A program made the position numbers and the translations under genes. A model generated the notes under the pieces. That model did not search any database. It worked only from the letters and a program-made list of their open reading frames with translations, and was not told where the DNA came from. Shown here one piece after another: positions 20,501 through 55,698 of a stretch of DNA of 64,000 nucleotides; within the stretch, counting starts at the first letter, position 1, and each line of letters begins with the position of its first letter. The DNA comes from Amoebophrya sp. A120 (lineage: Eukaryota; Protista; Dinoflagellata), in assembly GCA_905178155.1 (NCBI GenBank), contig CAJINV010000017.1, forward strand, positions 1,294,722 through 1,358,721. The letters run 5' to 3'.

Positions 20501-23500
20501 CACGCCCTACATGCTGCAGCTCATCCTGCAGGGGACCTTTGTGCAGCAGCGGGCGATTGTGATTTTCCGGATCATCAGTAATTTCGTGACGTTGCTCTCC
20601 CCCATCTTGTTGTCCGCCATGCAGGAGGCCAGTCGCGTGGGGTGCATATGGATTGTAAAAATGTCTGGGTCTGGAAGGTTGGAACTTGTAATGCTAGCTT
20701 TCCATAGCTAGAAAATCTGTATTGCATAACCAACAAAAGTCGCAGCCTCTTTTGTCATGCTGACACGCAGTTTCTCATGCGGATTGCCTATGAGAGAGCG
20801 TTTTGGGAAGTTGTCATGCCGGACTCAATTCGGAAGTGTTTTCATCATGCACATTTTAGCATCACAAGTTTCCAGACCCAGACACTTTTGCATTTGATAG
20901 CGCAAGGCCCTGAACCAGAGGCTGGTGAACGCGCGAAATCTATCCTGAGTGAAAACGTCCCCACCCCATAGTTGTCATGCAGATCTGCATGCTCAGAGTG
21001 TGTGTCATGCGGCTCTCCATGAGAGGCATTACCTAGTGGCGTTTGGGAATCTGTCATGCGGTAATCAGGATGACAGACTGGATCTGTGATGCGTTCGAAC
21101 TAGCTAGGCACGACTACACTGCGTCGCCAAGCTTGTGATGCGTGAGTCCCAAAAATGCTCGATTTGTCTTGCCAAAGTCCCAACTTGACTATGGGGTGGG
21201 GACGTTTTTACACAGGATAAAATCCGAAAAACTTGCCCGTCGCCGGGGCGTTGACCGTGCAGTGTTTTGACAAGACGGGGACCATTACGAAAGACGGGCT
21301 CGAGTTGGAGGAGTGTGAGCTGAAAATGCTGATCAAAAACGACGAGAACCTTCTGGAAGAGGACAACAAAAACGCCACTTATGCGGAGAAGATGGATCAG
21401 CAAGCCGCGCAGGGAGTAGTTGTGGATACCACTAACACGACGACCACCAATCTGCTGGTGGGGCAAGAACACGATCAGCAGCAGGAGCTTCTCCACAAGA
21501 CATCAAATGCTGACCCGACTATGCTGCTACACACCGCGCTGTCCACCTGTCACACCGTTTCGAAACTCCAGGATGGGACGTTGGTGGGGAACCAGGTGGA
21601 GCTGGAGATGTTGAAGATGGCGATGGAGAAGATTCCCGGGCTGTCTTTCTCCAAGACGGAAGACTTGACCGACGGAAGCGGCAGCTGCACGGACTACTAC
21701 TGCCACGACGAGGAGTCCTCGTTTGGAGGTCAAGAACATCATCTTCCCACTGCTCATCCTGTTCACAAGCAGCGCCGCTTCTGCCGCACGGTGCGCCAGT
21801 TCGAATTTGACCAGCACGCGCAGTTACAGTCGTGTCTGGTGGAGATGGAGGGGGACAAAAATCACAGTACCAATACCAAGAAGAACTATGCCGTCGACCA
21901 GCATGACATCAAGCAGAAGCCAACAATTCTCTTCGTGAAAGGTTCTGTGAAGCGCATTGTCGCAAAGTGCAGGCCGGAATCCGTCCCCGCCGGTTTTGAG
22001 CAGTCGGCGGAACAATTGGCCATGGAAGGATTCTACCTAGTCGCGATGGCGATGAAAACTGATTTAGTTGCTCACAAGGACGATAAAGAAGATCAACAAC
22101 AGCCGTCAGTACTAGACCTCTACCAGGTTCCCCGCGAACATTTAGAGCAGAACCTCACGCTCCTCGGGTTACTGAAGTTCCGCAACGAAATCAAGCCGGA
22201 TTCGCGCCACGTAATCGAGACGTTGAAAAACGCCGACATCGCCACCCAGATTATCACGGGCGACAATGTTTGGGCGGGGGTGCATATCGGGCGGGAGAGC
22301 GGGATCATCGCCGCAGAGAAGGACTTGGTGCTGGTCTTGGATCTCGAACACCACCACTGGCACCACAGCCCAGGAGGTGGTGCTGGCGGTGGTGCAGTGC
22401 AGCAAGAATTGTTGCATCAGAGCTGTACTTCTAATCATCTTCTGAAGCTGCACCTGATCAAGCCGGAAGTTGCTACGACGTGCAGCAATAACAAATCGGA
22501 AGGTCTTGAAGAACTTCCACTGGAAGACGAAATGAACGAAGTTGAAGACCTGTTTCAAGACGGTAACAAGCACTGGAGCTACTACGAACACGGCGACGAT
22601 TTGAGTGATAAAGGTGATGAAGCCGCGCTGCTCTCTTCGAAACTCACCCTTTTGTCCGATTATAATGGATGTGGTCCTCATGTTGATCGTGGGGATGAGC
22701 TCCATTATCACTGGAAAACTTTACCGGAACAGGAGCAAGCGGAGGCGCTTTTCAAGGAGTTTTTGAAGCAAAAGACGACTTTTCTACTCGCGCAGAACAA
22801 GGACAAAAGTGCTAAGAGCGCTGTCGTGGACGAGAAGAAGAAGCAGATCGTGACGGCGTTCGAACTGAAGAGCGGCACTGTTGTGAAATTTGTCGTGACG
22901 TTTGACGCGTTCAAGAAACTTCTGGAGGTTTCGGAGCAGAACATGGACGAAAATGCCGAGAATGGGAGCAGCAACGGTGATAAAAACGCTAACGCAGGAG
23001 CAGAAGATTATGCCGACATGATCAACCACAGTAGCGCCGCTGAGCGCGATCCCGAGGATCCCGAGGCTGCGCCGATGAGCAAGAGCGTGGATTTCTGGGC
23101 CATGTTCGTCAAGGCGCAGATGAAGAACTGCAACAGTAAAGATTTTTTTTCCAAGTCTAATAACGCGGCTGGCAAAAAAGGCACAACTACCGTCAAACAG
23201 CAAGAGAAGGAGCTGCAGCAAAGTTTCTCCCTGCTCTCCCTCCTGTATCCGAATATCGCGGTCCTCGGATCGATGACGCCGGTCGGGAAAGTGCAGGCGG
23301 TCGAGTACTGGCAAAAGGAAAACCTGTTCGGGAAGCAGGTCATCGGCATGTGCGGAGACGGGGGGAATGACTCTGGCGCGGTGAACGCGGCGGATATGGG
23401 CTTGGTTTTGGGGAACGACGACGCGGAAGAATTGTTCGCGCCTTGGAGTCCACGTGCAGAAGTTGCTGGATCTAGTAGTTCGAAAAACTTCTTACACGAA

Positions 23501-26500
23501 GGTGCTGGCCGCTGTGAGAAAGACGACAAGAACACATCTCCCGTTCAAAAGATCAAGACCAGGAGCGTGTTTCATGCCCCAACTGAAGAAATGGACGAGG
23601 ATGAAGTTTTCGACTACCACGTGAACGTGGACGAAGTCGATGTGCACCACTTGAGCCAGGGCACGCACCACGTGAAGGACCAGGACTTCCACGTGCACGA
23701 ATCATTTATTCCGAACACTTTGCAACTTGGCTCGCAAGAAATATTAACCACGACGTCATCGCACCAAAAGAGAAGTGGAGGACATCAAGCGAACTACCTG
23801 AAGATGCGCCGCACCACAGTCTCGATGTATGAAGAGGAGGATCTGAGCAGCGAAAGTTCCGTTGACAGCTCGCCGGAAGATGATGTTGGAACAAATCTTA
23901 CGGAAAATAAGAAGAGAGCAAAGTCAGTGAAGAAGAATTCGAAGCAGCAGAACAAATTGTCGAAAAAGAAGGACAAGAACGCGGTGAAGATGTCTGCTTC
24001 GGAGATCTGCCTGCTCTCGCCCTTCTCCGCCCAAACGTCCAGTCTTCGTTCGCTCCTGTATTTGATCGAGTCCGGCCGCATGGTGATGATGAACAGCTTC
24101 GGCACGGTGAAGCTCTTCCTGGCGTACGGCATCGCCCGCGCGTTCCAGAGCTTCGAGTTGGAGTCAGTGTTGTCTTCTCGTGGCGAGGCGCAGCAGATGC
24201 TGGACACCTTTTATCGCAAGAAAAAACTGTTTCGCTGTAAACTTGTGATGCATAGAACCAAACGCAAATGTGTTTGTCTTGCTACACATGCAAGACATTG
24301 GATTTTTAGCTGTGTTATCCCTTAGGAAGCACGCATGCCAAGTTTTCTTTGTCATGTGTAACAAACTTATGATGCAAATCTTGCAAAATCTATCATCACA
24401 GTGAAACAGTTTTTTCGTGGGACACCTTTGTCGTCATGTTCATTCTCTCCCAGGCGGCCATTAGGAACAAGGTGCCGACAGTGTTTGCTGGTGCGGGCGA
24501 ATACCGCTCGTTCATCTTGAAGAAAATGGGCTACTACAATAATTTTGGTGGAGTTAGTGTCAAGTCAAACGGCGCAAAACATCAAGGAGCCTTGACGCCT
24601 AGCACGACCGACAAGTCCGTCGTGGTCCTCAGTAAGAAGCAGCCGGAAACGAAGATCTTCGCGCTCTCCGTGTGGGTGGACATCGTTTTCGCGCAGGTCA
24701 CCTTCATCGTCTTCCTCTTCCTGTTCGCGTTTCAGGCTCCGAAGCTGTTCAATTGGACCGAACAGACGGCGGATCTGATCCCGGCCGCGCAGCAAGAAGC
24801 GCTCACCACCGAAGAGCGCGTTTATCTCGCCGACTGGCTGAAATTCCCGTTGTTGCAGACAGCCTACGACTGGTGGAAAATTCCCGGCACCTACATGGAA
24901 CTGGACCAGCTGAACCCCTTCGCGTTCGGCCTGGCCGCCACGGGGGACACGATGGTCCAGTCGACCGACCTGGCGGGGAACTTTTACAACGTGGTCTTCT
25001 ACATGCTGCTGTTCGGCTGCACGGTCGCCTACAGTCTGGCGGGCCAGTTCCGCGCGCCGGTGTGGAAGAATGTGAGTCTGCACCTGTTTTTCTTCTTGTT
25101 CCTCCTCCCCTTCATGTTTCTCCTGGGGTTGTTCTGGTCGCAGACGGTGGTCGGGTCCATCTTTCGCGTGAACATCGACAACCGCTGGGCGAACGTGCAC
25201 ACCCCCTACTTCCACGACGTCCTGGGGTATCTGAACGTCAGGTTCCAGCAGTTTCCGGAAACGGACGAGATGCTGGGGGCGAAGATCTGGTTTGCCGAGC
25301 AGGACTGGAACGAGGTCGGGGTGTTGGTCGAAGCGGAGAAGAAGAAGACGACGGAAGGACAAGGAGCTCCACTAACCCCAGAGCAAACCGATTTCTACGC
25401 AAAGCTCGAGTCTCGCTTGCAAAGCGTGCAATCCGTGCAAGACGCGATTCCCGCTTTCTGGAATACGGCGGCGATCCAAAAAGACTATGACGAAGTGTTT
25501 GGCGGCAGTGGCGCGGGGAACAATTATGCTCCTTCCCCTGCACCGCAAGCTGACGCGGATCAACAACCTGAGAACTACCTCTACAATCTGAAATTCGATT
25601 TCACGAAGGCGTTTGCTTGGGACGACGCGAAACTGGCGCAATTGAAGCAGGTGTGGGCTCCGGGGCAGCTGTTAAGCGCTGATAGTTCCCGCTACGACAT
25701 GGACTTCGGTCTATCAAACCCGTTCATTCGTGATCTGATTTTCTCCTTTCCCCCACTCGGAGGTGGAGGCGCCCCCGCGCCGGCGTCCGGAGGTTCCTCT
25801 GATGATGTCGATGCCAGCAAGAAGGCGGTTTTGATCGGTTTGTACGGCGCGCTGGCGGTGCTGCCGAACGCTGCGGAACAGGAGTTGGTCTTGCCGTTGA
25901 CGCAACACAGCACGTTTTCCAAGCACGTTTCGATAGCGGGGAAGAAACTGATGCTGGAAAAGCAATTCGCGGATAAATGGCAAATCGCTTTGTCCGTCCT
26001 GCCCTTGCAACTCGACCGCAGTAGTAGTGCGTCTGGGTCCTCGACGTCCTCGGTTGATGTATATCAGCCGAAGGTGTACCAGGTCGGCGTGAAGGTCGAT
26101 TTCGCGTGGACTGGTGCGGCGGCCTCTGGACCTGCCACTTCGGCTGTTGAGTCTCAACAAACATCCGCCGCAGAGGTGAAGTACATGTGTCAGGAGCTGT
26201 GCCTCGCGTCGCTGCAACTCCAAGACGGGGGGGACGATGGACCCTTTGGGAGGTTCATGTGCTGGCACGTCGCGATGGAATACATTAGCTACACGGGGGG
26301 TGCAAATGCGCCAGAAAATAACCCCTCCTGCGTCCTGTTTCCGCGTTTAGACATGGACACGAAGGTCGCCCTGGGTCCGGAATTTGCCGCGTACAAGCGC
26401 GACCAGATCCAGCGCAGGAGGAGTCTGAGCGAGGAAGAGGTAGAGCAGTACGCCAATTCGGTGGCGGTCGGGATCGTGAAGCCGCCCAGTACTGGTGCAG

Positions 26501-28086: not shown

Positions 28087-31000
28087 ATGTTGATGCGAAA
28101 AATGTCACGCCAAGTGCGAGCGGTGCGCAGCAAGGTGCTAAACCTAAACGGGTTGTGTGAAGGCACCAAGAACACCTCGTCATGGGTGGCACCGGCGCCT
28201 TCGACGGAGGCACCTCTAGTATCGCCGTCTTCATCTTCTAGCGGGAACGGGATGTTCATGAGCAGGAGAAGTGCTACTACTAGTACTAGTAGCCCCTCCT
28301 TCGCAAGGAGCTTCGGTAGCTTGTCCCGCGGCGGCACCACATCAAGCAGCTCTTCAGGCACGAGAAGGCTCTTCTTGCTCGACGGGGCGAATAGCTCTTC
28401 AAGAGGTGCGCTCAGCAATTGTTCGATGGGAAGGATATTGACGCGACGGGAAAATGACAAACTGTCTTGTATTCATCCGTCAGGGGCGGGGACCATATCA
28501 AGATCGTGTCTCCTCGGAGGTCCGTCTCGCGCCTTCTGGAGTTCTTCTTCCAGCGCTTTGGCCCCCAATACGACGGGGGCGAGTCTCCAGGCGTCATCGT
28601 CATCCGCTGCGCAAACGGCCAGCAGCTATGCGGGACCTGAGAGTCACAGTGTTGAAGTTGCATCAAGCGCGAGTACGAGAAATGCAATAAGTTCTGTATG
28701 TGACGCATCATCCACCACCGACCAAGTGGAGGGCTCTTCCGCCTTCCGCAGCGGGAACGACGGCGGAACTTCTGGAACAAAGCTTGGGCCAGCCTCGCCA
28801 AGCACCGACTTCGGAGCTGCAGCTACAAGTGGGACGAATACAACAAGAGCCTCAAACTCTGTTTCAACATCCGCAGGGCAACATTCACAAGTAGCGGCTT
28901 CAGACGACTTGGTAGCTTCCAGAGCCTCCCAAATAACGCCAAGAACTAGTCCGTCATCATCTCAACATTCGCTAACCAACGCTTTGGACAGCTTGGAGAG
29001 CCACTACCGGCAGTCCGTGACCAAGAATGGGATGCGCGTCGCCTCCCTGAACGCGATTTCGGACACCTCCGTGACCGTGGGTGTGTGGATCGACGCGGGG
29101 TCGAGGTACGAGACTAAGGAGTCCAACGGCTCCGCGCACTTCCTCGAGCACATGACCTTCAAGGGCACCGCGAAGCGGACGCGACACCAGCTCGAGACGG
29201 AGATCGAAAACATGGGCGGCCACCTGAACGCGTACACCAGCCGGGAACAAACCGTGTACTACGCCAAGGTCTTTCCCTACGACCTGGACCACGCGCTGGA
29301 CATTCTGAGTGACATTTATCCACAGAAAAAAACCCATCCACATCCAATTTGTCATGCAAAACGTGCTGAAAGTCCTGTGCTTGTCATGCAAAAAATGGAT
29401 GGGGATGGGTTTTTTTCTTTGGATAACATTCTGGGCAAGTCGGCCATCCACCCGCGGTCGGTGGAGGACGAAAGGTCGGTGATAACGAGAGAGATGGAGG
29501 AAGTCGAGAAAAGTATCGAGGAAGTCATCTTTGACAGGCTGCACTTGGCCGCATTCAAGGACCACATGCTGGGGTATGATGTAAACTTATGCTAAATGGA
29601 TTTGGATTGTAAGTGAAGCTACTGATGACATTTAAACTTGATTTGCTCGACGTTCTGTTTTTGCTGGCGCCTGTCGTGATTGATAGATTCGCGCTTTTAC
29701 ATGAGAGAAGATTTTTCGGAGTTTTCGCTCGTGTTTTAGCATAAGGCCGTGCAATGTATATTGATTGATAGATTGTTTTGACGAGGCCATCAGGATGCAA
29801 TTGGAATTGCAGTCATCTGACTCTGAATTTATTTACATAAATGATTGGGCTGCCTGCAACAAGTAGAAGGCTCCGAGTGTTATATGAGTGACAATTTTAT
29901 TTCGGAACAAGAAACACCCATATAACCACATCTTCAACAAACCTACAGCGCCACGATTCTCGGGCCCGTGGAGAACATTCACCACCTGCAGCAGAAACAC
30001 CTGCGAAATTACGTGGACACCAACTACACCACCGACCGGATGGTGGTTGTCGCCTGCGGTGCGGTCGATCACGACGATCTTGTCGCGAACGTGGAAAGAT
30101 ATTTCGACGGCTTCCGCACCCATCCGACCGGGTTCACGCCCTACACCCGACCGCATTGGATGCTGGAGGAAGGAGAAGCGTCTTCGTCACCTAGTAATAT
30201 GACGCCTTCATCCCGCAGTAACGGGGCGGTGGTGAATCATGACGAGCAAGTAGATGCTGGACAACATGCGGCAGCGGGGGCGGCCAGTAGCAACTCTACT
30301 ACTTCTATTGGCGCAGGAGCTTCTGCTCCGAAAATTGAAAATCCTCAATTTTGTGGTGCCGAGCTCCGGTATGCGACGCCAGTCGGGGAGAAAACCTCTC
30401 TCAGCTCCCACGGCGCCGAGCCGCAGCCGCACCAGCTAGCCCACTTCGCGATCGCGTTCGAAGGTGTGCGCTGGACCTCGCCCGACGCCGTGCATTTCAT
30501 GGTCCTGCAGTCCCTGCTCGGGGTCTTCAAGCGGGACGAGTCCCAGAAGCTGCTGCCCGGGGTGTTTTCTGCAAATCCGCTGATACGAAGCCTGACCGCG
30601 AGACTGGAGCAGCAGCTGCTGCACAAACTCTTCAGCGACGAATATGGCGTTCTCAAATGTTACATTCTGAACTGTTACATGAATTTGTCATGCAAAATGA
30701 CCATGACCCGCCAGACGATGAAGCTGCTGCGCATGACAAATTCTCGGAGGGCTAAGCAGCACTATAATCCGCACGAAACCTGTAATGCAAGACGCGCAAG
30801 GTTCTCCCTCTCACCTGTGCTGGTCTTGCATTACAAATTCATGTAACAGTTGAGAATGTAACAGTTGAGAACGCCATAACGAAAACGGCGAGGAGATGCT
30901 GATCGCGAAGCCAGACTATGTTATACCGCCAGCGGCGGACAGTACCGCGCAGCAAGAAGAAGGTGGCTCTGGCTCGAGTAGTGGCGATTCTGTGGCTGGT

Positions 31001-32187
31001 TCATCATCTTCATCTAGTAGCGCGGCGGCGGTGGACCACGAGCAGGTTGCAGATGCTTCACAAACTGCCGGCACAGATGAAATATTCAACGAGCCGCCAT
31101 ACCACGAGAAGTTCGAAGGGATGAAGGTCAGCGACGCGCTGGAAAAAATGTCCGACCCCGAAATCGCACAATTGCAACACGACCGCTACGCGAAGCTCTT
31201 GCAGGAGGACCCCACCTTTCAGCCAGCGTTCTGCGAGCAATACAGTGCCTTCAACACGTGCTACCGGGTACTACTATAAATAATAGCTGTTTATAACAAG
31301 CACACCAAGATGAACTAGAAGCGGTGGCTTCATCATTCTCGTTGTAGGCTGTTTTTTGCCGCTGATTTTATGTTGTTTGAGTATAGAGCTGTTGCAGTTT
31401 TAGAGTTTCTTCATATCATTACAAGTTGTATCGTTTCGAAATTTCAAAATCAATCCACAGGACACCGGTCTTTTTGGCGTCCACGCGGCGTGTAGCCCGG
31501 ACGCGGTGCGCACCGTGGTCGAGGAGATCATGTTTGGCATCAACCGCCTGTCGCACTTCGAGCAAGTCCCTACGGCCGAGCAGGAGCTCGCGAAGGCGAA
31601 ACGAGAATTGAAAACCATCCTCTTCGCGGCACAGGATAACACGACCAACATCGCGGAAGAAATCGGCCGCCACCTGCTCGTCTACGGACGATATGCATCG
31701 CAAAAGTATTAATATGTCGCAGTGTGCATTGCAAACGCGATCGGGATCGCATTCTACAAAGCTTCTTGCAATTTGATGGATGAAAGATCGAAATTGTATA
31801 TCCAGCTGGAGCGAGTACTTCTACTTCCAGTCCACTTTTTATGTACCAGTACCTCTTTCAGCTGCACTTGCATTTTTAGCGGCACAACTGTCATGCCATG
31901 TTGGTACCCTACAACTCGATTCAATCCTCAACACAAGTGCGACATGGTTTAGTACTTTTGCAGAGGATAGAGGAAGAATACCGCCCCAGGAGATGGACGA
32001 ACGATTGTCAGCGATCAGTGTGGCGGACATTGAGCGTGTCGCAAAGACGTACTTGAAGGGGAAGGAAATCGCGGTGACAGCCTTGGGGCCCATCGAGGAA
32101 ATGCCCACGCTGGAGGAGATCAAGCACCTGAACCAGATGGACGGGAATTCCAACAATTTTCAGGGGATGGTCAGCGCGAGTACATGA
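28087..32187 (+). CDS. Mitochondrial processing peptidase beta subunit (peptidase M16) with long S/T-rich N-terminal extension
   Basis: VGVWIDAGSRYE, GSAHFLEHMTFKGT (HxxEH), LNAYTSREQTVYY, LGATILGP, DTGLFG, LLVYGRRIP; GT-AG introns 29574-29948 and ~31269-31460 plus three TIR elements. Confidence 0.93.
29317..29425. mobile_element. Introner-like TIR element, family D, copy 1 (109 bp)
   Basis: TATCCACAGAAAAAAACCCATCC...GGATGGGTTTTTTTCTTTGGATA; perfect acatt repeat; removal gives DILSDILGKS. Confidence 0.92.
30643..30878. mobile_element. Introner-like TIR element, family A, copy 2
   Basis: TATGGCGTTCTCAAATGTTACATTCT...AGAATGTAACAGTTGAGAACGCCATA; perfect acgaa repeat; 241-nt removal joins ORFs 29968 and 30896. 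Confidence 0.92.
31692..31969. mobile_element. Introner-like TIR element, family E variant
   Basis: TATGCATCGCAAAAGTAT...GTACTTTTGCAGAGGATA; flanks gacga/gagga; removal gives LLVYGRRIPPQE. Confidence 0.88.
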
Positions 32188-32900
32188 ACTACTTCTCCGG
32201 CCTGACTCTGATCCTGAAGAAATGCATTCCGTCCTGTCTTGTGAAGCAGGATGAGTAAATTCATTTGAAGATTCATTGCTTTGTAATAAAGAGTGCCGCT
32301 ATTTTACTTTCTGTGTAGGATGGTCGTGATTGACCACTTCTATCCCTTCGGTTCTTCGTAGTTCTTGGCGACTTCTTCGAAAATGAGCAAAGGCGAGCGC
32401 TTCTGCCGTTTAGAGGAATAAAGGATACACGATACACCAACATTCTCTCCCAAGTGCCAACAATAAGGCACGCGTGGGTAGGTGGCCAGGGTATTTGAAA
32501 TGAAACATCAAGAGGGGAACAATTGAAAACAGCGACTACGACATACTATGAGTTACAACAAGGTCGAAAACGAAACAGCACCAACGTGGTGAACAGGAGG
32601 AAATAAAGATTATACGCAAAAACCAACGGCCTAGATCCATCAAGCGGTGTTCTATTTCATGCCCTCCACGACCTTCTCATGAAGGTGCATATCGTGAAAG
32701 CTATGTACTAGAAGTAGATATGGTGTTTTACCGTCTTCCAATATCTCTCCACCTTCCTACGTGCGTTGTTGACCTCCGCTTCGAAAGAATCTTCTGGACA
32801 TTAAATCGTCTGGAGGCAGTGTCACTGCGCCAGCTCGTAAGAACAGCAGTTGCAGTGGAAACAACAAGAAGTAGATCACGAGGTTTTATGCCTTCTGTAA

Positions 32901-40570: not shown

Positions 40571-40931
40571 ATGCCGTGGGGCTACTACCACAAGCAGGCG
40601 GTGAAAGAGGAAAACCGCGAGAAGCTCGCGGAATACATCACCTCAACGCGACAGCAGTGCTCTCGGATCAACGGCGATATCACCTACTACCGAACTTCGC
40701 AAAGACTGGAGAACGACAAAAGTCGTATTTTTTGTTGCGTTTGTGATGTTGAAGTGTTTTCGTCGCAGTTTTGTTTGCATCCTGTCTGGTACCTGAGAAA
40801 GCAATGAATATGAATCCGAGCTGAAGAACACATTGAAAATGAAGCTGACTCGTCTCAACACAGATCTCCCGCGCACCTTAGCCAAGGCCACGGATGTTCC
40901 CAGAGACCTGTATGATCCAGTGATGAAATAG
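40571..40931 (+). CDS. Small hypothetical protein, probably two exons
   Basis: MPWGYYHKQAVKEENREKL..., T-rich putative intron ~40722-40797, then ...YESELKNTLKMKLTRL...PVMK*. Confidence 0.4.
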
Positions 40932-42327: not shown

Positions 42328-45300
42328 ATGTGGCTTTCGCATCCGCAGCAACCACTTGTCCTCGCGGTCCACGAGGGTGTCATCGCGGTTTACTCCACAA
42401 CCGCCGGGCTCGAGCTGACTCGCATCGATGTCGGCCCGGAGGTGGTGCGCGCGGCCTGGCACCCCCGGTTGCCGGCGTTTTTGGTGGTGACCACGGGGAG
42501 CTTTTCGCTCTACGTCGCGGTTCTTCTTGCCGCTGGGAGTGAGGATGGAAGTGGTCGTGATGTTGTCGGCAGAAACCGCAATCATGACAACGAAGAGGAC
42601 TACGAAGAAGACTGCTCTCACGAAACAAGCCTGATAATCAATCCTCCGCTACATTTCGTCCTGCAGCAGAACGTGCCTCACGGGCTGTTGCGCGACCGAA
42701 TTCTGAACGCGTTTTTCGGAGTGCAAAGCCGAGTTTGCCTGTTGCACACCGCAGGGACGGTGGTGCCGCATTTGCAGGACAGCTTGGAAGCCGAGGAGGC
42801 ACAGCTGGATGGCATTTATTCTTCAAGTAGCGCTTTTATTGCGCCAGGGTCTTTCGAACAAAAAAGCACAGCAGCCTCTTCGTCTTCCAGCACCAGAGAC
42901 ACAATTTTCTGCAGCTTTTGGGACGTGCACATCACTTACATGCCCGGCGGAGGTGCTGGAGGTGGTTATGGCTATGGGGCATTAGGGAGTGATGGTGGGG
43001 TGTGTTCTCCGCTTCTTTCCTTCCTCCTCCAAGTCGCGACCGAAGGTAGCAAAGTGCCTTTTATGCCGAATAGTGTTGGGATTAGCACAGGAGCGGAGAA
43101 TGAGGAACAGCTAGACGACACTAAGAATGTTTCTTCGGCCACCACGGGTCCTGAACAAAACTTCGGTCGTCGATTTTACAAAACACAGTTTTCCGTTGCC
43201 GAAATTTGGCAGGACGTCTTCACGAATGCGGAGGTTTGTGCGGACGTGGTGGCCGAGGCGGCAGTGCGCAGAAAAGCCCGAGAGGAAAAGGACTACTACA
43301 GTATTCAATACTACAGGACTCGAAAAATGGCAATGACCCAGAAGATGAACAAAGCTGTTCCTACAGGAAGGTCTTCTGCATCGGCAGCAGAGGACCCCGA
43401 CGCGCTCGAAAGCAAGATAGCAACCGACACCCTGGATGCCTGGGATGCGCATGTGGAATGTCTGCGAGGACTACATAGGAAACCACACCACGGCGACGAG
43501 ACTACATATGATGCTGCTACTCGTTCCTCATCACAGCCAAGCTTTTTGTCGGCCGCAACAAAAGCAAAATCCCCCGGTTGTTCTGGTGTCGTTCCAGAGA
43601 CATCACCAAGACTCCCTCTAGATTTCGGCAGCGAGGCTTACTACGCAAGGCTTCTGGAATCAAGTCCGGACGTCAGGTTCTTTGTCACGAGGAAGCGGGA
43701 AAAAACACTCAAGGAGCAGTACGCCAGTCGCGGTCAAGTCAGTCCCTGCGAGCGGTTCCTGGCGTCTTTTGCCGAAAGGCGCGTGCGTGTTTTCTGTTCT
43801 GGCGTTCTTGACGGACTACACGACGGAGCAGACGTTGACTTGATGGGTACACAAGAGAACGCTTTTACCGGACTCGAACAACATCTCCCGAACAGAGGAA
43901 CTGTAGGTCGTGCACGACCAGGGGCGGACGAGAACAGAGACGGAGCAGTTCTGTTCGAGACACCTCCTTCGCGAACGCAAAAGACGAGGGGAGTGTTGCC
44001 TTCCTTACGCCAAACGCTTTGGCAGGGGCCGCGTACCAGCCGTCCTCAGAGAACTTCTGCGATGCGCAGATTGGACGAGATGAACGGGGACTTGGGCTGT
44101 AGGAGTTCGAGTTCCAAAAAAGAAAGCGTTAGTAGAAGTGGCGGCCGCGATCATTTGATTTCCAGCAACGCTAGTGTAGTCCTATTCAACACCGACACCC
44201 CGTTGGTTGAGCGCGACTTTTCAGCCGCGACAAGCTCCCGCAAAGTGAGCTCTTCCTACTGCACGCTCGCTTTCCCTGACCGGGTGAGGTCGGTTTGTTG
44301 GGTTCTCGAGAACAATTGTGCTGCTACATCTCCTTCTACACCGCGAGCGGCGTTTCTGGTGCTCGAGGCGTCTGGACGGGTATCCATTTGGCGGGAAGCG
44401 TGTCGGGGGCAGCCAGTCGGGTTCCGAATGGTGTCCCGAATCGATGTTGGGATGAACCTAAACGTCTCCGCCGCGCGCAGTACTGCACAAGATGCTGAGG
44501 CAGATGGAAGGAACGAACTTTTCCACGTGCAGCCAGTCTTTCCTTTGGCTGCCGGCGGGATAAGGGACCAGGCCCAGCAGATAGCTTCACCTCTGGAAAG
44601 TGTAGTGGAGAACAGAATATTTGAACTTCTGCAGGAAAGCAGTCGAGGCGCTTCAACCAGTAGAGCCGCGCGACTGCTACCGACGGGATCCAATACTTTC
44701 CCGCTACAAAGTCACGGACATTATTGCGGCGACAAAAGAGTAGGCGAGGACTTTGGTGGTCAACATCTCGATGAGTTGACGCCAGATGTTTCAAACGTGA
44801 GCATCGCAACATCTTCTTCGGGGGGCACTGCATCTACCGGCGATTCCTCCTTTCCGTTCGTCGCTCTGACCACCCAGGGTTTGGTGCTGTGCAACGCGCC
44901 GCTGGAACAGGGGCAGCTGCACACGTGCATGTCAGCTCCGCTGGTCGCACTTCTCGAAAACACGGCACACTTTCACGCCTGGTACTGTTTCAGTGCTGTT
45001 GAAGTCGTGCAGGATGAAACCGCCACACAGACGTCGGCAACGCTGCAAAGGCAAGCAGACGCGAAATTATACGCCGGTACCAGAATTACAACAACATCAA
45101 AACTCTTTCACTTCACCGCCCTCACTGCACACGGTGACCTGGTCCGGTTCGGTAGCGACGGAAGAAAACTGTGGGGCCGGGACGTACGGGCGAAAAGAAA
45201 TTTGAAGTTTTTGGAAGCAGGAAACAACGCGAGCGTGGATGCTTGGGGTGGATCATCTTTGGCAGCTGCTGTTAGCTCGTCCACTGCAGCGGATATTAGC

Positions 45301-48300
45301 GCAGCGTCTGGCGCAAAACATCAAACATTATCGGCCACGCGAGGATCTCCAACGAGGAAAAAAGACCGGGCGTTCTTCGATGAGGCCCGACCGAGGTTGT
45401 TGGAGGAGGTCTTTTTGAAGACGCAACAAGGTTCTTGCGCGGTACCTCTACCTGCTTCGAAAGTAGTCTCCCAGCTCCTGATGCATCCGACTGTCGGCTA
45501 CGCGGCTACGTTGACAAGCGGCACAGTGCGCATTTACCAGCCATTTTCCTCATCATCATCTTCTGCGCGTGCTTCTCACGGGACGAGCAGTGGCGTACCA
45601 GGAAAAGCTCCTGCAAATACTGCATCGTTAGCCACACCACCGGCAAATGCAAACAGCGCACCGACAGTAGTAAGATCCAAAATTCTTTCCCACGGGGTGC
45701 TAGGCGGCGGTCACGACTCCATTCGGTGTCTCGCCTGGGACACAACAAACACGAGGAATTACCCGCCCCTGTTGCTCGGTGTGACCACGACCTCGGTGTT
45801 GGTAAGCGCCAGAATCACGTCACTGGACCAAATCGGATTCAAACCTGTTCTGGTTCGCGGGGGAGGGGGCGGTAGTTTGAACACTTCTGCGCAAGTACCT
45901 GCCTCAACAACAACGTCAACATTATCGTCCTCTCAAAGTAGAACAGCTTCAAAAGCAACCACAAAAGACCAGTTGTCTTCATCTCGTCGCGCACCTGCTG
46001 CTGCGCCTCTCGTCGGCATGGTTACGAGGACTTCTTCATCTTACAACCGTGATGACGCAGGAGCCTCGACGTCCACATCACAGCAAGGCGCGACTTCGCA
46101 GGTCAAGAATGTTGAGGCCGTGGTGGTGAAGTTGTGCTTCACACTGGTGCTCTATCACGACAAGACACTCGACGTCGGGCAGTTCTCGATCAAAAATCGC
46201 GATGGGATGTTCACGGTGTTCTGGCAGGCGAGGCACACACTGAGACTGAATGTCATGAACGCAGCGAATTATAGTGCGCTTTCAGTATCGGGGCCGGGGG
46301 CGGCACCCGCACGACCCGCAGCGATGTCGCAGCAACAAATTTGCGTGCGGAAGAGACTGGACTTCATGCCAGATGCACTCGGTGCGGAAGTGCTTGTGGC
46401 TAACAATTATAGTGGCGAAATTACAGGAGCGGGCGAAGCAGAGTCAGAACCTCCAAGGGAAACCGGTGCGGCTTTCCCGTCGATTCAAACCGGCAACATC
46501 CGAACTGGAGAGATGGGAGTGCTCAAGGGACTCGGATTTGCAAAAACCTCCACGCATCGCGCTGTCATCGCCGCGCATAAAGACAAACTCAACGACCAAC
46601 AACTTCGCCACCAGGGAGGACCAAAAATCCTTGCCATCGACCTTGTAGACGACTACCTCGGTGTGCTGTGGAGCTCCGCTGAGGTTGCAATTTATTTCTG
46701 CGGTAGCGTCACGGGATCGGGACGAGACGCAACGGAAAACAGTGCAGCTGGTCTCGATCACCAACAAAAAGTATCTGGAGCAGCACATCAGACGCGGTCA
46801 AACACGAAAAATAACACTAAAAGAAAACCGCGGGAGAAGTCCTCCTCCTCGTTCCGGTTGCTTTGCAAAATCGTTCTCAAAAACGTGCCCAACCTGCAGC
46901 GCGACAAGGCGGCTGACTCAACGACGACCTTCCGTGCCTGGAACGCGCAAGGGCCGGTGAATGATTTAGCCCAGGGGCTGTATCAGCAATCGAATAACCT
47001 CACGAAGTCCATTCTGGACCACGTAAAGCAACCACCGAATCTACTGCATGCCGCGACCGCGTCTGCCGGAAATACGAGCAGGAGCTTCCACCGTGGTTCA
47101 CAAGACGAGAAGACGCAAACTGAAACTTCACTCTTCGCATCGTCAGGTGCAAGAACAGGAAATGCAAAAATCGAAGTAAAACTACAGGCGTCCGACTTCC
47201 TCACCTACGGTTTTTTCGAGTTCCAGCGCAACACCAGTACCGGCGACGGCCTGGTAGCGCTCGCCTTCGGTTTCGGCGACTCCGGTTTGTATGGTCCGAA
47301 CCTGTTCGCCAGAAGTCGATCGCAGGTCGCCGGCGAATCTTTTGTCACCGCCCAGGTCCTCTCGGTTGCCCCGACGACGGAGGCGGTGTGTTTTGGGCCA
47401 AGCAATTCCGGCACTTTGCTCGTCATGGACAACAGCGACCTGCGGTCTCCGCAAGTCTGCCTCCAGGTGATACCGTTTCCGTCGGCCATAGCGAACGCGC
47501 TGCACTCCTCGACGGCACTGAATCTGTACCACCCGGACGCGCTTCACTTTTTGATCACGCACGCCAACTTCTTTCCGGACAAAATGGTCCACACGGTACT
47601 GCGAAAATTGCGGGAGGGCTTGAAAACAGCGAACTGGGAGGTGCTGGCCGATATTGTTGTGGATAACGATATCTACGAGGAACACGAGCAACTCGGTCAC
47701 CGAGATGAAATAACTGGTACTCCGTCGCAATTCGTATCAGCGCCCGCGACTGTCGCGACGACCAGTGTGGTCACTGCTAATCCCAAAGCCGACTGCGCAG
47801 AAGATTTTTGGAACGATCGCGACAGCGATAGCGATGCGGATGAAATGGAGAAGCTTACTGCTGCTTCTACCAATCTCGATGTTCTTACCTCTTCAGAACC
47901 TAAAACCGCGCGGCCTTCAGCTGGCGCAACAACTCCTATTTCAACTGCAGTAGCTCCTGTGTCCTTCTGTTCCTCCACGTGGGACGCTGCTTCTTGGCGA
48001 TTACCCGAGGTGGAATTGAAGGAAATCGTGGAACTTTTACACCACAAGCGCATTCCTTTTGTGGATTCCGCGGAGCAAAGGGTGCTAATCCAGATGCTCA
48101 ACAGCTTCACGTCAACGGGAGCATCAAAACCAGCGATAATTCCCTCGAATCCGCTTGCCTCGCTAAAGGTTGACTTTCCCGGGCAGAAGTTCCTTCGCGC
48201 TTGGTACTTTCACCGCGGATTGAATCAAGTTTATTCCGCAGCGACAGGGACTTCTACGACTACTGGAACCTCCACTACAAGCAGTTCGACCAGCACGACC

Positions 48301-51300
48301 AGAGAAAACTACAGCGCTCTTTCCTCATCGTCCTCCTTCCCAATGCTGACAACTTGTGCTGCCGCCAGCCTGTCCACCGAAGACATTGTGTGGGCGTTGC
48401 ACAGCAAGGACCAAAGTGCGCTGTGTGATTTGATGCTTTTCGAACTGGAGAAACAAACGGAACATGCTGCCAACATAGCAAACCAGCCGACCACGTTCGC
48501 TCTGGAAGGGGAGGAGACGAAAATTTCGGGGGAACAGATTTGGAGAGCCTTCGAATCCGTTTCCAAGCTCGGGTTTTGGCTGACCAACAAGACGCAAATC
48601 ACCCGCTGTCTGGAGGCGCTTCCGAAGAAAATTCTGCAGCTGCAGAAAGACGTCCCCCTGCAGGACCGGAACCCGGAGGCGGTGGCCTTGTGGTACGCCG
48701 CGTTGGGGCGGCACAGCTTGCTGGCCGCCTTGTACAAAGCGTCGAAACAGGAGGCCATTGCAGGCTTTATCTCCCAACTGGCAGCGAATGTAGGAGGTGG
48801 AGGGAGTTTGCGGAAGAACCAAGTACAACTTACAGGAACAATGCAGGGAGCGGCTCGTCATCATGCAGGAACAAGTGGAACTACTTCTACTACAGGCATC
48901 GAGCAGCAGGATAATTCTCAGCAGACACAGGATCAGGAGCAACAGCAGCAGTCGCAAGCCGTGAAGACCAAAGCGATCAAAAATGCGTACGAGTTGATCC
49001 GGCAGAAGCGGTACATGCTGGCGGCGACGTTTTTTCTCTTGGCGGACCGCTGGCGCGACGCGGTAGACGTTGTAGTGCGGTACATGAGCGACTTTGGCCT
49101 CGCTTTACTCCTTGCCCGGCTCGCGCCCCTCGACGCTGTGGAGATCGATCCGACGAGTGGGTTTGGAGCGGAGGAGAAGAAGCGGGTGGAGGAGGTAATC
49201 AGGGTGGCGGAAGGTGGCGGGGCGAATTTCGAAGAAGATGGAGATGGTATAAGTGCTGTCTTGTTCCTGATCCTGCTATTCCCTGACAATCTTTTCTACT
49301 TGCATTGTTCTTGGAGACGGTTGAATGCATGGGTGTCATGCCACCTCCTGGAGGAGCAAAATGAAATCCAATACAGAACTACGATGCAACAAAAAGAAGA
49401 ATAACAAAATAAACTAACATCAGCCTTCGCTGCCGGCTCCCCGGAACTACCGGTAGCAGTATCAGCCACTGTAGCTGCTAGCTCCATGAAGATTGACCAC
49501 GACTTCGAGCAGACTGCAACAATAAAAGTCCCCCCGCTCGTGTACCACGTTGCCATGGACGAGCTTTTTCCTCTTGCGCAGAGCCGGGGGGACGTCTGGC
49601 TTTCTAGTCTAGCGTTGTGGCACGCGGGGAAGTGTGTGGACGCCGCGGCCGTGCTGTCAGGAAGAGCAGGCGTAAGAGCGTCGTCGTCGACCAAAGGAAG
49701 TGCGATTGTTCCGGCTGTCGAGTCGTCGTCCGGCGATGCACCGGCTTCGGCGCAGTCGGGCGGAACCACGTCAGGAGAGATGACGAACGCATCCCCTTTC
49801 GCAGCTTCGTCCTTCTCTCCTGACATGATCTCCTACAACAACCACGAGAATTCATCATCCCAGCTGCCACCAACGTCCGGGCAAGCGACTTTCCTAGTCG
49901 GTCTGCGCCCGGGCGCCCGGGACGAGCTGATCACCGGCCACTTCCACGATTTCCTCGTCGAATTACTGCGATGCGACATGAAAATCGAATTCTCGGCGCA
50001 TATAGCAGGCGCGGAACAAACGTCGAATACGTCTACTTCCAGCACTGCTTTATTTCAAAATAGTGCAACCACGTCAGCTACACCTACAGGGGTAGCAACC
50101 GCCAGCGGAGCGAAGATTTCCAAGCCGCGTCTCTCTCGCCAATGGTCGTCCGTTTCGAGCTCCCGGCAGAGTTCGAAAGAACAGTTCTCCTCTGGCGCAG
50201 AAGGGACGTCAACCACTATGGGCATCGCAGCCGAGGATGAGATATCACATTACGATCCAGAACATCAAGCAAAAGTTGATGTAGATCAAGTGAGTAACTC
50301 CATCACAGAACTGGGGCTAACGTACCTCCAGCGCCGGCACCCCGTGCTCGCTTACCTTTCCGGCGATCGCTCCGTGCCGGTTATCCGGGCACTCTTACCA
50401 TTGTTTCTCGGCATGGGCAGGAGTTTTGAAGAGTTTACCGAACAGCTTCCGACCCCGCACTTATCCTACGCCGAGAAGCACCAGCTGTGGGTAACCAGTG
50501 CTTCTTCCGGCGGTAGGAATAACGGCGGCCAGAGGACTACAGAAATATCATCCCGCAAGGGAGGTGGACCGAAAAACAGCATGATCAGTGGTCTGAATGC
50601 CGCGAGTGCGGAGAATTTCGTGCTCGAGACTCTATCCTTCTGCGTGCGAAACAACGCAACGAGCTTGGCGCCCGGCGTGGACTTTCCGTGCCGCGTGTTG
50701 AAAGCGGCGCTCCCCCACTGCGGATCGTTGAAGTTGCAGACCCTTGTTGCTGCAGTGCTGGCGCTGTACGAACTTACTACCGGCAGCGGATTGTGGTTGA
50801 GTGACTACAAAAACTGCGCGGCGCGATATTCGTCTTCCAAGAAAGGTAGTGGCTCAGCAACGGATCATGCGCACCGTGGGAAAACATCTGCAGGAGCAAT
50901 TGCGGCTGCCCCTCTGTGGGCCTCTGATTTCCTGAACAAAGACGTCGATGGAAAGCAAGTGCTGTTGGGTGACCCGACGGAAAACCTTCTGGATAGCGAG
51001 GAGGAGAGTAGAACAGGAAGTATGACAACGGAAGAGCTTCACTCGGCGAGAGAGAAGACTACCGACGTCATGTGGCGCGTTCTTTTGCAAGCAGTGCAGG
51101 AATTGTCTGCGGACGCAGTGCTCGTGCAGGGAACAAGGTCTGGATCTGTTGGTGGATCGCATCCTTCTCCGACGAATCCTTCCGGGTCGTCTTCAGGCGC
51201 TCGTCCTAGGCAGATACTCCACCCCCCAGCCCCGACTTTCAGTACCGCCGCATCGCTTTTGCTGCAACACTACGAAGACGAGGACTCTCTGACCAATACC

Positions 51301-54300
51301 AGCACTGAAGATCTTCCTCCTGCTGCTGGCGCTGGTAATAAAACTGGAAGCACATCAGCAAGTGCCAATATGAGTGGTCCACAGCATTCGCGACCACACT
51401 CCCCTGCTCGTCCGCAGCCGCCAACACCAACGCAGGCCCTACTTCCGGTTTTTCTCACGACAGCATTGTCCTCTTCCGCCCAGCTTCCTGCCTCCGTCCA
51501 ATCCGACCGCCTGGTCCACACGGACGCGGCAACCCGGCACCCAAACAGCCGCATGCTTGAGTCGCTTGACCACGATCGCGACGTGGTTCGGGCGAGGTTT
51601 GACAAACTTCGTACGGATTTCCAGGCGGAATTGCAAGTGTGCAGGGATAAAGACGCAGGTGGTGGAGCTCTTCGCTTTACTTCTTCCAAGAAAAAACAAT
51701 GGGTGGATAGCTCCTGTGGAGGTCTGCTGTGTCTCACTCCGCTTCAGAAAGTTTTCGTCTTGTCCTTCGCGGTGCAGGTTAGCGAACAGTTGGTGGACCA
51801 CCTGCTTCAGAAAACGGAATTCGAAACGCGAAGCGCGCCACCTTATACAGGGCCGCTGACGGGCATAGCTACAACAAATCCGTCTTCCCGTGCGCCATCC
51901 TCGACATACAACAGCAAACAATCGAAGTCGACCGCGTCTTCTTCATCGACTTTCGACTCGCTCCCGCAAACCGGCACCATGCGGACCTTCCTCCACCTTA
52001 TCACAGTGCGTGCGCGGCACTGCGTCGTCGAGGAATTTTCCAAGTGCCCCCAGGATTTGAAACTGGCGTTGCTGCACGACGACATCTTTTCCTTGCAAAT
52101 CCCGCAGGAGCTGGCGAGCTTCACCTTTATGCGTCGGAAATCGAGATCGAAGACCGTACCTCTACCAACAGGAGCCAGCAGCGCAACCGCGATGTTGACG
52201 GCGGCCGAGTACGACGCTGCGCGAAGCGGTGGTGCTGCAGCTGCCTCAGGAATTAGTACTCAGCCGACATCAACTTTTTTCGGCAGCGTGTTCGGCGGCA
52301 TCCTTGCGCCGGTAGTTGTGCCTGAAGCGGTGGACGATGTTGTAGTATCCGACGAGCAGACGCCGAATAGCAGGACTAGCGGGACTAGTACAACTGGGAC
52401 AGCGCAACAAAGTACCATCCACCGGATTCAGCTCACCCCGATGGATGAGTTATTCCGAATCGCCACCGGAAACAACATCGCTGCTTTGACCTTGTGGCAA
52501 AGGCTTTCCGGGACGTCATTTCTCCTTTTGCTTGGCACACACCACCCGGCGGTGGTGGCGATGCGACTTGATGAGAAGTTTGAAAAAGACTTCGCCTTGA
52601 ACCCAAACAATTCCTCGAGCTTTCATTCGGCAACATCCGCCGGACCGTCGACCGCAACCGGAGCTACAGCGCTGAGTGGTAGAACTGCTGCAAATTACAA
52701 CAACCCCGGGAACTTTTCCCTGGATCGGAACCTTCTCACGACCGAAAACGAGCGGAACAAGCTGGAGGAAGAAGAATTCCTGGCCGCTGCAGCGGAACTA
52801 CAACAGAGCGGACTTCTGGATGCAACGGGAACAACAGAGACGAGTCTGAGCGGAACAATCCAAAAGTCCTCTCAGCTGCAGTCTCTCCTCCTGAAAAAAG
52901 TTGTCAATGCCGCCAACTCTTGCGTCGTAGACAACAGCGGGTCGCTACGGGTAAGTTTGTTTTCCGAGACCGACGCTTCGTCCTCGTTTCTAACCGCCGG
53001 GAAGATGGTTAGTGAGGGCGAGAGGTGCCATTTGTCCATGTTGATGCGGAAGCCGTTGCTGGCCACCGACGTGGAACACGAGTGCTGGGACACAGCCAGG
53101 GAGATGCTTCTAGCCGGGTTGAATTATCGCGCCCCGTCCTCGTCGTGTTCGTACGACGAGCGCAGCAGCTTCCTGGCCACCACCGCGAGAGGAGCTGCCG
53201 GTGTTTCTATCGCCCCAGCACAACTTCTTCGAGTATTAAAAAGCGGCGAGATCATGTCCAATTTCAACCCACCGCCAGGAGCAGGGGAGACAGTATTAAA
53301 CGGGACGCCGGGGGCTACAACTGCAACTGGACGGGTCGTTGACGGTCCGCAGGACGTTGTCGTGGATGACCAATCTGCAGCTACGCCTAGTAGTGCAGCC
53401 CGCTCACGGCCCCCGCGGGGAGCTTATCTGCGGATGAAAGTGAACAAGAGCAGCCCGCCGAGCAGAGGTCCAGAGGAGGACGAGGTGCTCGAAGGGAATG
53501 AAAACGCAGCTCCGACGTCATCTTTTTCAGAAAGTAGTAGAAGTAGAACTGCACGTGCACCTGGTGTCCACCAACACGCTCCTCCATCTTCCGCGATCCT
53601 TGACCAAGCGATCAATTTCGAGCAAACTACGGCTGTGAAGAAGCTGAAAACTGTCCCCGAAGTGATCACAATGTCGTGCGCGCACAAGACGGAGCCGCTG
53701 TACGCCGTCGCCTGCGATTCGGGGCCGCTGGCATTCGTGCGCTCGTTTGCGGAGGAAGAATTGGAAATCAGTTTGGACACGTCTGCGCTGGTGAATGCGG
53801 GGAGTGGCAGTTTTGGAGCCGGCAGTGCTGCAGTGGCGGCTTCTTCTAGAGCCGGCGGCGTCAACCAGCAAGCAGCGTTTACATCCCCGGAGAGGCGGCG
53901 GGCCGAAGAAGAGAGTGCTGCAGCAACAACGTCGCAAGGTGGACCGCCAAATGCTGGTGTAAGTGGTGACAACTTGAAGAGGATAACTTCAACACCAACC
54001 CTTAATGGCTCTTCGTCGTCCAGTGGGGCGGTGGGGGTCGCAGCTGGTGCTGGACCAATCTCTCTGTCCCCTCCCGCAGACCTATCCCCAACTACCAGCT
54101 ACTCGGCAGGTGCTGGTGCTGTAGCGAGCGCAGGCTCGTCGCCCGTGGACACCGGCGGAACGTTGCAGCACGGCAAGAAGACGCAGTCGATACCTTCTTC
54201 AACGGCCTCAACTTATCAACAAGTGCAAAAATGTCTGGGTCTGGAAGGTTAGAACTTGTCATGCTAAATCTGAATGATGCAAAAATCTGTGTTGCGTGAG

Positions 54301-55698
54301 TACCAAAAGCTGTCCGCTTTTGACCAAGTTGAGAGGGAGTTTCTCATGCAGGAAAGGCATGATAGAGACCTCAAAAAATCTGTCATGCTGGGTCTCGCAT
54401 TCCAGACCTCATGGGTCATGGAAAACCTGCATCACAAATCTTGCATTCTTGCAGACCCAGACACTTTTACATTTGATACAACTACGAAGCAAGCCAACGC
54501 CTACGTCGCCACGCAGCGGATTTCTGTACTGCAGTTCCAGGGCGACAGAATCGTTGTCGGAACCCGAGGTGCGGTGGATTCGCCAAACGTGTGTGTTTAC
54601 CACTATGGCGCTGGGATAGAAAGCTTCAGTAAGAGAAGTTCTGCTCGTCCAGATGTTGACCGACAAAGTGCGATGCCGTCAGGAGCGGTTGCTAGTACTG
54701 ATCCCAGCTCAACAAACAGACACAACAACACAGTGTCCCAACGCCCGTACCTGACCTTCTCGACCGAGTCCGCGCACAGCCAACTTCTCGGTGGGGACTT
54801 CTGTTCCGAGCAGTGCCTGGTAACGTGTGGAGCGCCGACGGAGACGACGTACTTTTCCACACCTTTGTCCTCTTCAAGCTCGGCAGCTATCCAACCGGGC
54901 AGCTACAACTACGCATCCAGTAAAGAGGAGTTCCACAGCTCTTTGGGAGTGTGGGACCTGCGCATACCGCCAAGAGCCAGGCTCGTGCTCCGAGACAAGA
55001 TCTCGCTGCGCGGAATGTCCAGCACGTCCGCAGACGCATTGATCAACACCAGGGTGGCCTGCTTGTGGACGAAAGATGCGGGGTCAGGATCTTGTACTGT
55101 TTCATCATCGAATAGCAGCGTAGCCCACACCGCTACTGGAGAGATTATTCCTTTCGATCAGCACGGAACAAGTGGGTTTTCGGCGATTCGAAGGCCGATG
55201 GTACAGCAGGACTTCTCTTCAGACCTGTTTTTCGTGGACCACCATGCGTCTTCGACCAATCTGCCCTCGACCGCCTCTCTGAATTATGGCACCAACGGGA
55301 CAACATCATCATCCTCTTCGAACCTTTCCTCCAACGACAAAACGCTTCTAGTCACCTCGCGCAGTGGCCACCTGCGGTGGTTTGACCTGCGCAACCAGAA
55401 GTACGTGCACAAGGCGAAATCTTCGCACAACGGGTCCGCGGTGAAGCAGTTGCTGGTTTTTGAGGACTTGAAAAATTGCGTGACCATCGATCATAACGGG
55501 AACCTGCTTCGTTGGGTCTGCCCCGATCTGGCGAGGCGTTTCACGGACTGCTTTTGCGTCGAGAAGAAACAGCAACTACACGCGTCGACGAGCTTGTTGG
55601 TGCAAAGGACCGCCGTGGTGTCCTCCGCGCAAGTCGTCGGTCCGAGACATTTCGTGACTACTGGGCTGGATGGAGCGTTTTACTTGCATTGCTTCTGA
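42328..55698 (+). CDS. Rav1/DMXL (RAVE / Rabconnectin-3 alpha)-like giant protein, ~4300 aa
   Basis: Rav1_C-like motifs DIVWALHS, KLGFWL, AIKNAYELIRQKRYMLAATFFLLAD..DAV; WD40-like C-terminus (LGVWDLR, LRWFDLR, VTTGLDG); GT-AG intron 49247-49423 and element 54214-54478. Confidence 0.8.
54214..54478. mobile_element. Introner-like TIR element, family C
   Basis: TATCAACAAGTGCAAAAATGTCTGGGTCTG...CAGACCCAGACACTTTTACATTTGATA; perfect caact repeat; removal joins ORFs 49486 and 54274 (STASTTKQANAY). Confidence 0.92.

Follow-up and report, generated by a model that had tools for sequence, protein, structure and literature searches.

In the dinoflagellate Amoebophrya sp. A120, introns that derive from transposons and lack canonical ends are removed from RNA exactly and, in the region analyzed here, very probably at one fixed distance from their own termini. 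The region is a 64,000-nt stretch of contig CAJINV010000017.1 (the window), in which 20 elements with terminal inverted repeats (TIRs) were catalogued. Their register, 5'-N-TAT[CG]...[CG]ATA-NNNN-3', starts the intron 1 nt before TAT and ends it 4 nt after ATA (the 1/4 offset). One such rule probably holds across the A120 genome, and it likely amounts to a second, positional splicing code, borne wholly by the terminal trinucleotides of a transposon, whereby insertions in either orientation and into any target would be spliced seamlessly; in this it would converge on the spacer code of Euglena. The element class and its non-canonical ends are already published for A120 (Farhat et al., 2021; PMC7789003); what is added is the fixed positional rule, which draws on a single window, RNA sample and public gene model and finds an echo in a published table.

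Three elements, singled out in a sequence-only reading of the window, pose the problem in its sharpest form. Elements 20941 (AAATC at 20936-20940 and 21220-21224, core 20941-21219), 29317 (ACATT at 29312-29316 and 29426-29430, core 29317-29425) and 54214 (CAACT at 54209-54213 and 54479-54483, core 54214-54478) are TAT...ATA cores with long TIRs, each set within a perfect 5-bp direct repeat, in keeping with the 3-5 nt boundary repeats of A120 introners. The observation that no register within these repeats begins with G or ends in AG is correct for all six registers of each element on the + coding strand. It is no more than chance would give, because in 23.7% of random 5-bp targets both a G donor and an AG are missing; only 8.5% permit any G[TCA]..AG register, and G-free repeats flank 4 of the 20 catalogued elements on both sides. 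The three are typical of the window's TIR elements rather than special.

Elements 20941 and 29317 are removed exactly without canonical ends. The RNA evidence consists of contigs assembled from four runs of a single sample (depth 3-40), which represent spliced RNA because six GT..AG introns are skipped in them exactly; together they provide at least nine joints with non-GT..AG ends, at least six with GT..AG ends, and one loose end. At both elements (joints in Table 1) the core and one repeat copy, 284 and 114 nt respectively, are missing with no base gained or lost. The joint at 20941 is flagged "between: not known", contains no inserted letters and has a completely placed 34-nt micro-exon on its left; at 29317 the contig coordinates are contiguous. 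Use of nearby G-initial or AG sites, the outcome that would have undone the sequence-only reading, did not occur at either: a frame-compatible GA..AG pair at 20935-21215 is present yet ignored by the RNA. Element 54214 lies outside the RNA coverage. A set of raw RNA reads under the same species label lacks the locus; of its 138 matching reads, nearly all fall on one element piece.

Do the host genes need such precision, as that reading supposed? For 20941 they do: its 284 nt shift the frame and bring stops in every frame, and once the four TIR introns between 19523 and 26800 are taken out, a P-type ATPase frame of 2105 codons runs through the DKTGT motif, located, as expected, downstream of the element (16 codons past it), with an E1-E2_ATPase Pfam match upstream. 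For 29317, in a mitochondrial processing peptidase beta-like (M16) gene, the DNA makes no such demand: the 114 nt are in frame and free of stops in the peptidase frame, so only the RNA, and the A25 orthologue, which does without these 38 codons, show removal. Here the A120 protein P0003 matches the window exon at 100%, and the RNA-joined exons reproduce 964/964 of its residues. For 54214, in a gene with a Rav1p_C domain, removal is needed, since 270 nt with three in-frame stops must go to restore the frame, but exactness is not, as a GT..AG pair at 54223-54489 would also keep the frame. No spliced A120 protein spanning 54214 was found among proteins of 351-2000 aa or representatives; the matches are P0001 (A25), P0123 and P0124, and P0001 places a 24-residue indel right at the junction. 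Removal of elements 5451 and 59057 also restores frames, a J-domain HPD motif included.

Where within a repeat does the cut fall? Perfect repeats conceal it, and neighbors with decayed repeats reveal its position. Three introns (34981-35133, 35544-35929 and 36364-36566) have a single possible register and a fourth, 34374-34707, has two; all start 1 nt before TAT and end 4 nt after ATA, 34374 in one of its two. Those at 34374, 34981 and 36364 were discovered from RNA alone, not through a search for TAT. Once the register was known, the repeat-less element 38081 was chosen as a test: only one of 6400 start/end pairs gives the A120 protein P0122 (431/431 residues identical to the window translation, which, like P0003, places the elements in the A120 genome), and that pair, 38080-38283, has the same N-TAT...ATA-N4 register. 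All 10 RNA-bridged TIR introns admit N-TAT...A(T)A-N4, three of them uniquely, and none of the six GT..AG introns does. The permitted registers of 14 elements, including one-sided limits at 18084 and 20347, intersect at one value; on the assumption that the removed length equals core + 5, the chance of any common register is 7.7e-4 for nine informative junctions and uniform cutting. For 20941, 29317 and 54214, the ends given in Table 1 are those that the rule would assign, since their repeats are perfect.

Table 1. TIR introns and related features of the window (positions at the 1/4 offset where registers slide).
Feature	Position	Strand	Evidence and remarks
TIR intron	18083-18366	+	RNA contig restarts 18365 (one side); nominal GT..AG register unused
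TIR intron	20346-20482	+	RNA contig ends 20341 (one side), ruling out last register
TIR intron, four registers, none G..AG	20646-20903	+	joint 20643>20902, 3/4 runs
TIR intron, P-type ATPase	20940-21223	+	joint 20935>21220, 4/4 runs; inferred CT..AT; 6 slidable registers
DKTGT phosphorylation motif	21269-21283	+	in 2105-codon frame after removal of four TIR introns
TIR intron ending ACA not ATA, 10-nt repeat	24211-24428	+	joint 24201>24420, 4/4 runs
TIR intron, M16 peptidase	29316-29429	+	joint 29311>29426, 4/4 runs; inferred TT..AT; P0003 964/964
TIR intron, opposite orientation to relatives 5451, 59057	30642-30882	+	joint 30637>30879, 4/4 runs
TIR intron, three registers (one GA..AG, one N-TAT...ATA-N4)	31691-31973	+	joint 31689>31973
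Decayed TIR intron, two registers (one AT..AA = N-TAT...ATA-N4)	34374-34707	+	joint 34373>34708, 3/4 runs
Repeat-less TIR intron CT..CA	34981-35133	+	joint 34980>35134, no shared base, 3/4 runs
TIR intron GT..CC, one register	35544-35929	+	joint 35543>35930, no shared base, 4/4 runs
Repeat-less TIR intron TT..AA	36364-36566	+	loose end after 36363 (4/4 runs), resumes 36567
Repeat-less TIR intron TT..GA	38080-38283	+	sole fit to P0122 among 6400 pairs
TIR element, predicted intron TT..AC, Rav1p_C gene	54213-54482	+	3 in-frame stops; fold z -4.79

The composition of the ends agrees with a signal that lies in the element. In the 11 introns supported by RNA or protein, positions +2 to +4 are always TAT, positions -7 and -5 are always A, and -6 is T in 10; by contrast, +1 may be any base (A or T in 4 each, C in 2, G in 1), and the first exon base is A in 7 and C or T in 2 each. 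The intron at 24211-24428 ends in ACA, which lengthens its flanking repeat to 10 nt, yet it is removed exactly in 4/4 runs, so T-6 is not essential. Among all 20 elements the first two bases at the rule's register are TT 9, CT 4, AT 4 and GT 3, and selection for G at +1, looked for in this set, was not seen. All 20 start with TAT (partly because they were selected so), 17 have A at positions 13-14, and they share the inverted repeat of 8-20 nt that starts with TAT and carries an A-run after ~7 nt. The elements are repeated in the genome, with relatives sharing 0.68-0.79 identity inside the window and many other contigs of a DNA-like run matching them; an internal TGT(C/A/G)ATGC motif has 47 copies in 4,645 element bases vs 9 in the other 59,355.

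The sequence-only reading proposed that the junctions are defined by a TIR hairpin that brings the two repeats together. The elements do fold well: z scores are -8.87 (20941), -6.64 (29317) and -4.79 (54214), with no shuffle equally stable, and the predicted number of end pairs is 8.8-24.9 in 13 TIR introns vs 0.1-11.2 in 7 canonical introns. It is the role of the repeats that seems to fail, as introns with decayed repeats are still cut at one offset from TAT/ATA. Pairing of the ends themselves may not be a general requirement either; terminal pairs are predicted at a probability of at least 0.7 in 8 of 13 elements and are low in 5, and the introns at 34374 and 35544 are cut exactly where the rule says although terminal TAT/ATA pairing is not predicted in them. 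The trinucleotides are thus probably sequence signals and not only the end of a stem. Element 30643 is spliced though inverted relative to 5451 and 59057, so the signal likely resides in the symmetric TIR. The flanking repeat looks dispensable, and the signal appears to lie in the terminal motifs and their spacing.

How might such introns arise and be removed? The model begins with a non-autonomous TIR element that would insert with duplication of a 5-bp target, as its anatomy suggests and as published; both TIRs are predicted to pair in the transcript. The element and one repeat-equivalent are then removed, bringing back the ancestral coding sequence, which the RNA documents for 20941, 29317 and eight more. 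The register would be set at N-TAT[CG]...[CG]ATA-NNNN, as seen at four loci, compatible with the others and assumed for slidable ones, 20941, 29317 and 54214 among them. The first and the last two bases would come from the target and be free to vary, which would explain the apparent lack of a signature. Catalysis could fall to a spliceosome that needs neither G+1 nor AG, and the branch base might be A-5 or A-7.

On balance, a U2/U5/U6 spliceosome modified so as to read U+2 A+3 U+4 as its donor and to find the 3' site by its distance from ATA is the moderately favored agent for these introner introns, which resemble miniature inverted-repeat transposable elements (MITEs). It is favored because U+2 A+3 U+4 matches the canonical donors of the organism (RNA-supported donors are GTA[TC] in 7/7, and the element TAT matches them at +2 to +4), because A25 keeps T+2 with a different TIR, and because U2, U4, U5 and U6 are present along with most spliceosomal proteins, though U1 was not detected. 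G+1 and the final AG pair with each other during second-step docking, so their joint loss would be coherent. By sequence the introns do not fit the standard intron classes: they lack the GT/GC donor and AG acceptor of U2-type introns as well as the ATATCC start and AC end of U12-type introns (any base can stand at +1, and none of the 11 supported introns ends in AC), and a search for group I/II introns or other Rfam RNAs gave 0 matches at the gathering threshold in the window.

Several observations weigh against this picture. U+2 would follow from any fixed-distance ruler applied to a TIR that starts with T, and base pairing is predicted for positions +2 to +8 of most elements, which a spliceosome would have to unwind. 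An AG within the last 20 nt is skipped in 6 of 11 introns, and both orientations seem usable, which speaks against an internal branch signal. As to the rule, the register comes from one 17-kb stretch plus one extra locus (38080-38283), and the RNA contigs and public A120 gene models may share underlying data. Finally, in file 8 of Gozashti et al. (2025; PMC12130899), seven large A120 families show GT at 26-30%, AT at 14-27% and AG acceptors at 24-34%, where the rule predicts 6% AG for random targets; slidable junctions were placed there by an aligner, whose shifting could cause the excess.

The same cis-code could instead serve a separate, non-spliceosomal route, of the kind suspected for Euglena nonconventional introns: a nuclease that gauges the stem would cut 1 nt and 4 nt beyond the TAT/ATA ends of that stem, and a ligase would then join the exons. 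This is a serious possibility, although the odds run somewhat against it. Its geometry would parallel the Euglena code, N3-CDG...CH'G-N5-6 followed by a purine, with fixed spacers (PMC12501133), and excised Euglena introns are reported as circles (PMC11282704). The strong end-to-end stems, the use of either orientation, the bypassed AGs and the failure of the published survey to detect U1 (PMC7789003) fit it too, and the diplonemid authors suggest comparable cut-and-ligate routes (PMC12621601). Such a nuclease sits less well with the exact cuts at 34374 and 35544, whose ends are not predicted to pair, with the match of +2 to +4 to canonical donors, with T+2 in A25 despite a TIR that starts TTA there, and with a first exon base that obeys no purine rule. 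RNase III-type, BHB (bulge-helix-bulge)-type and IRE1-type cuts are not known to match the 1/4-offset geometry.

Could the joints be artifacts, or the cut be made in DNA? Where a strong hairpin separates short direct repeats, template switching by reverse transcriptase is known to produce false introns (PMC8240250, PMC4176328), and every joint here comes from cDNA-derived contigs; such an origin is nonetheless highly improbable, as three RNA-bridged introns with no shared junction base and the P0122 gene model have the same offset, and retained elements would disrupt the ATPase, peptidase and J-domain frames. DNA-level excision, one of the routes that the sequence-only reading had allowed, would suit transposon-like elements, and removal of young ones restores the pre-insertion sequence. 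It is disfavored and very unlikely: contigs of the DNA-like run enter elements at ~42 depth, the same as the flanks; no element-free joint appears among the matches listed for that run (rare alleles could be missed); and a 1/4 asymmetry relative to transcription, in a symmetric element, points to RNA. Equally slight is the chance that canonical or G-initial sites close by serve instead, at the gain or cost of a codon. In-frame candidates exist (GA..AG at 20935-21215, GT..AG at 54223-54489), and 31691 is readable as GA..AG, but at 20941 and 29317 the RNA skips exactly the core and one repeat copy, and at 18084 it rules out the GT..AG register; for 54214 alone such a site may still serve.

Farhat et al. 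(2021; PMC7789003) report that more than 60% of introns are non-canonical, describe TAT-starting inverted repeats in A120, 3-5 nt direct repeats and hairpins, and count 29,850 repeated introns in A120; the elements here share the TAT TIR, the A-run ~7 nt later, short repeats, hairpin, length of ~100-400 nt, lack of GT-AG and RNA-seq support. That repeat layout also occurs in 15% of A120 canonical introns. The study leaves the mechanism open and calls splice boundaries "variable", a picture that reviews carry on (PMC11282704, PMC11453091, PMC12787238); PMC9860276 merely cites it. Its Table S4 lists 9/9 predominant A120 classes with N-T starts and 9/9 A25 classes with TT starts, which is what a fixed rule predicts, and its Fig. 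3 and Figs S19-S25 may show part of the register. It also credits A120 with 83/89 spliceosomal proteins and U2, U4, U5 and U6 small nuclear RNAs, and reports minor ones as absent. The fixed register was not found in the open literature on Amoebophrya introns, a scope outside which subscription journals, Roy et al. (2023) included, fall.

Among other systems, the nonconventional introns of Euglena (Nomura et al., 2025; PMC12501133) come closest: complementary trinucleotides, fixed spacers with the longer one 3', paired ends, a MITE-like origin, and a code visible only in non-slidable introns, proven there by knock-ins. They differ in using CDG/CHG with spacers of 3 and 5-6, where A120 has TAT/ATA with 1 and 4, and in obeying a purine rule after the intron; the lineages are unrelated, and the A120 introns work similarly without being members of that class. 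The A120 families of Gozashti et al. (2025), mostly "TIR DNA, unknown" with many non-canonical ends, are alike in kind, but are described as co-opting both splice sites, co-opting the 5' and carrying the 3', or carrying the 5' and co-opting the 3', with no common register in the 22 of 58 A120 rows available. Fritillaria borealis has MITE-derived U2 introns with the same origin from TIRs and target-site duplications and a spliceosome adapted to non-canonical ends (PMC11282704), there mainly AG-AC/AG-AT, while the terminal bases in A120 are free.

Other features of the window deserve mention. In several TIR families a T-run followed by CAG lies ~10 nt upstream of the 3' end in use (21205-21219, 17750-17764, 20464-20478, 35115-35129), and canonical-looking CAG acceptors are bypassed by RNA at 20941 and 34982. 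Seven GT..AG introns (29574-36188 plus 19268-19522) have GTA[TC] starts, A/C-rich 3' ends and little polypyrimidine tract. Left out of the catalogue, with ends unclear or off the window, were 15631, 40911 and 63901: the stretch at 15633-15727 is element-like and apparently outside a long open reading frame (ORF); 40911-41225 starts with TAT, and its 3' end may be the ATA at 41128, after which the repeat is shifted by one base, or that at 41225; and 63901-64000, in a NEK-like kinase gene, continues beyond the window. Candidates from the DNA scan at 26060, 27682, 47937, 57858 and 60380 were dropped as weak and likely due to chance. TIR element 10270 interrupts the S-adenosylmethionine-binding region of a gene for a Bin3/MePCE-type RNA cap methyltransferase (Pfam Bin3; 9392-11442). 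In the very long Rav1p_C-domain gene (42301-55698), the stop at 49402 probably lies within an in-frame GT intron from ~49249. As a lead only, target duplications of 5 bp and TAT/ATA ends, which resemble TGT/ACA, would both suit an enzyme of the integrase type. A120 family 38 is a TIR-flanked introner with ORFs like long terminal repeat (LTR)-retrotransposon proteins (PMC12130899).

If the rule is true, ~30,000 introner boundaries in A120 would turn from ambiguous to exact, and one rule would account for tens of thousands of introns hitherto without a signature. It would explain by what route a transposon came to do no harm wherever in coding sequence it lands, and it would predict which bases to mutate and where a branch would lie. 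It would also raise the question whether two lineages as distant as Amoebophrya and Euglena have arrived at similar stem-and-spacer codes.

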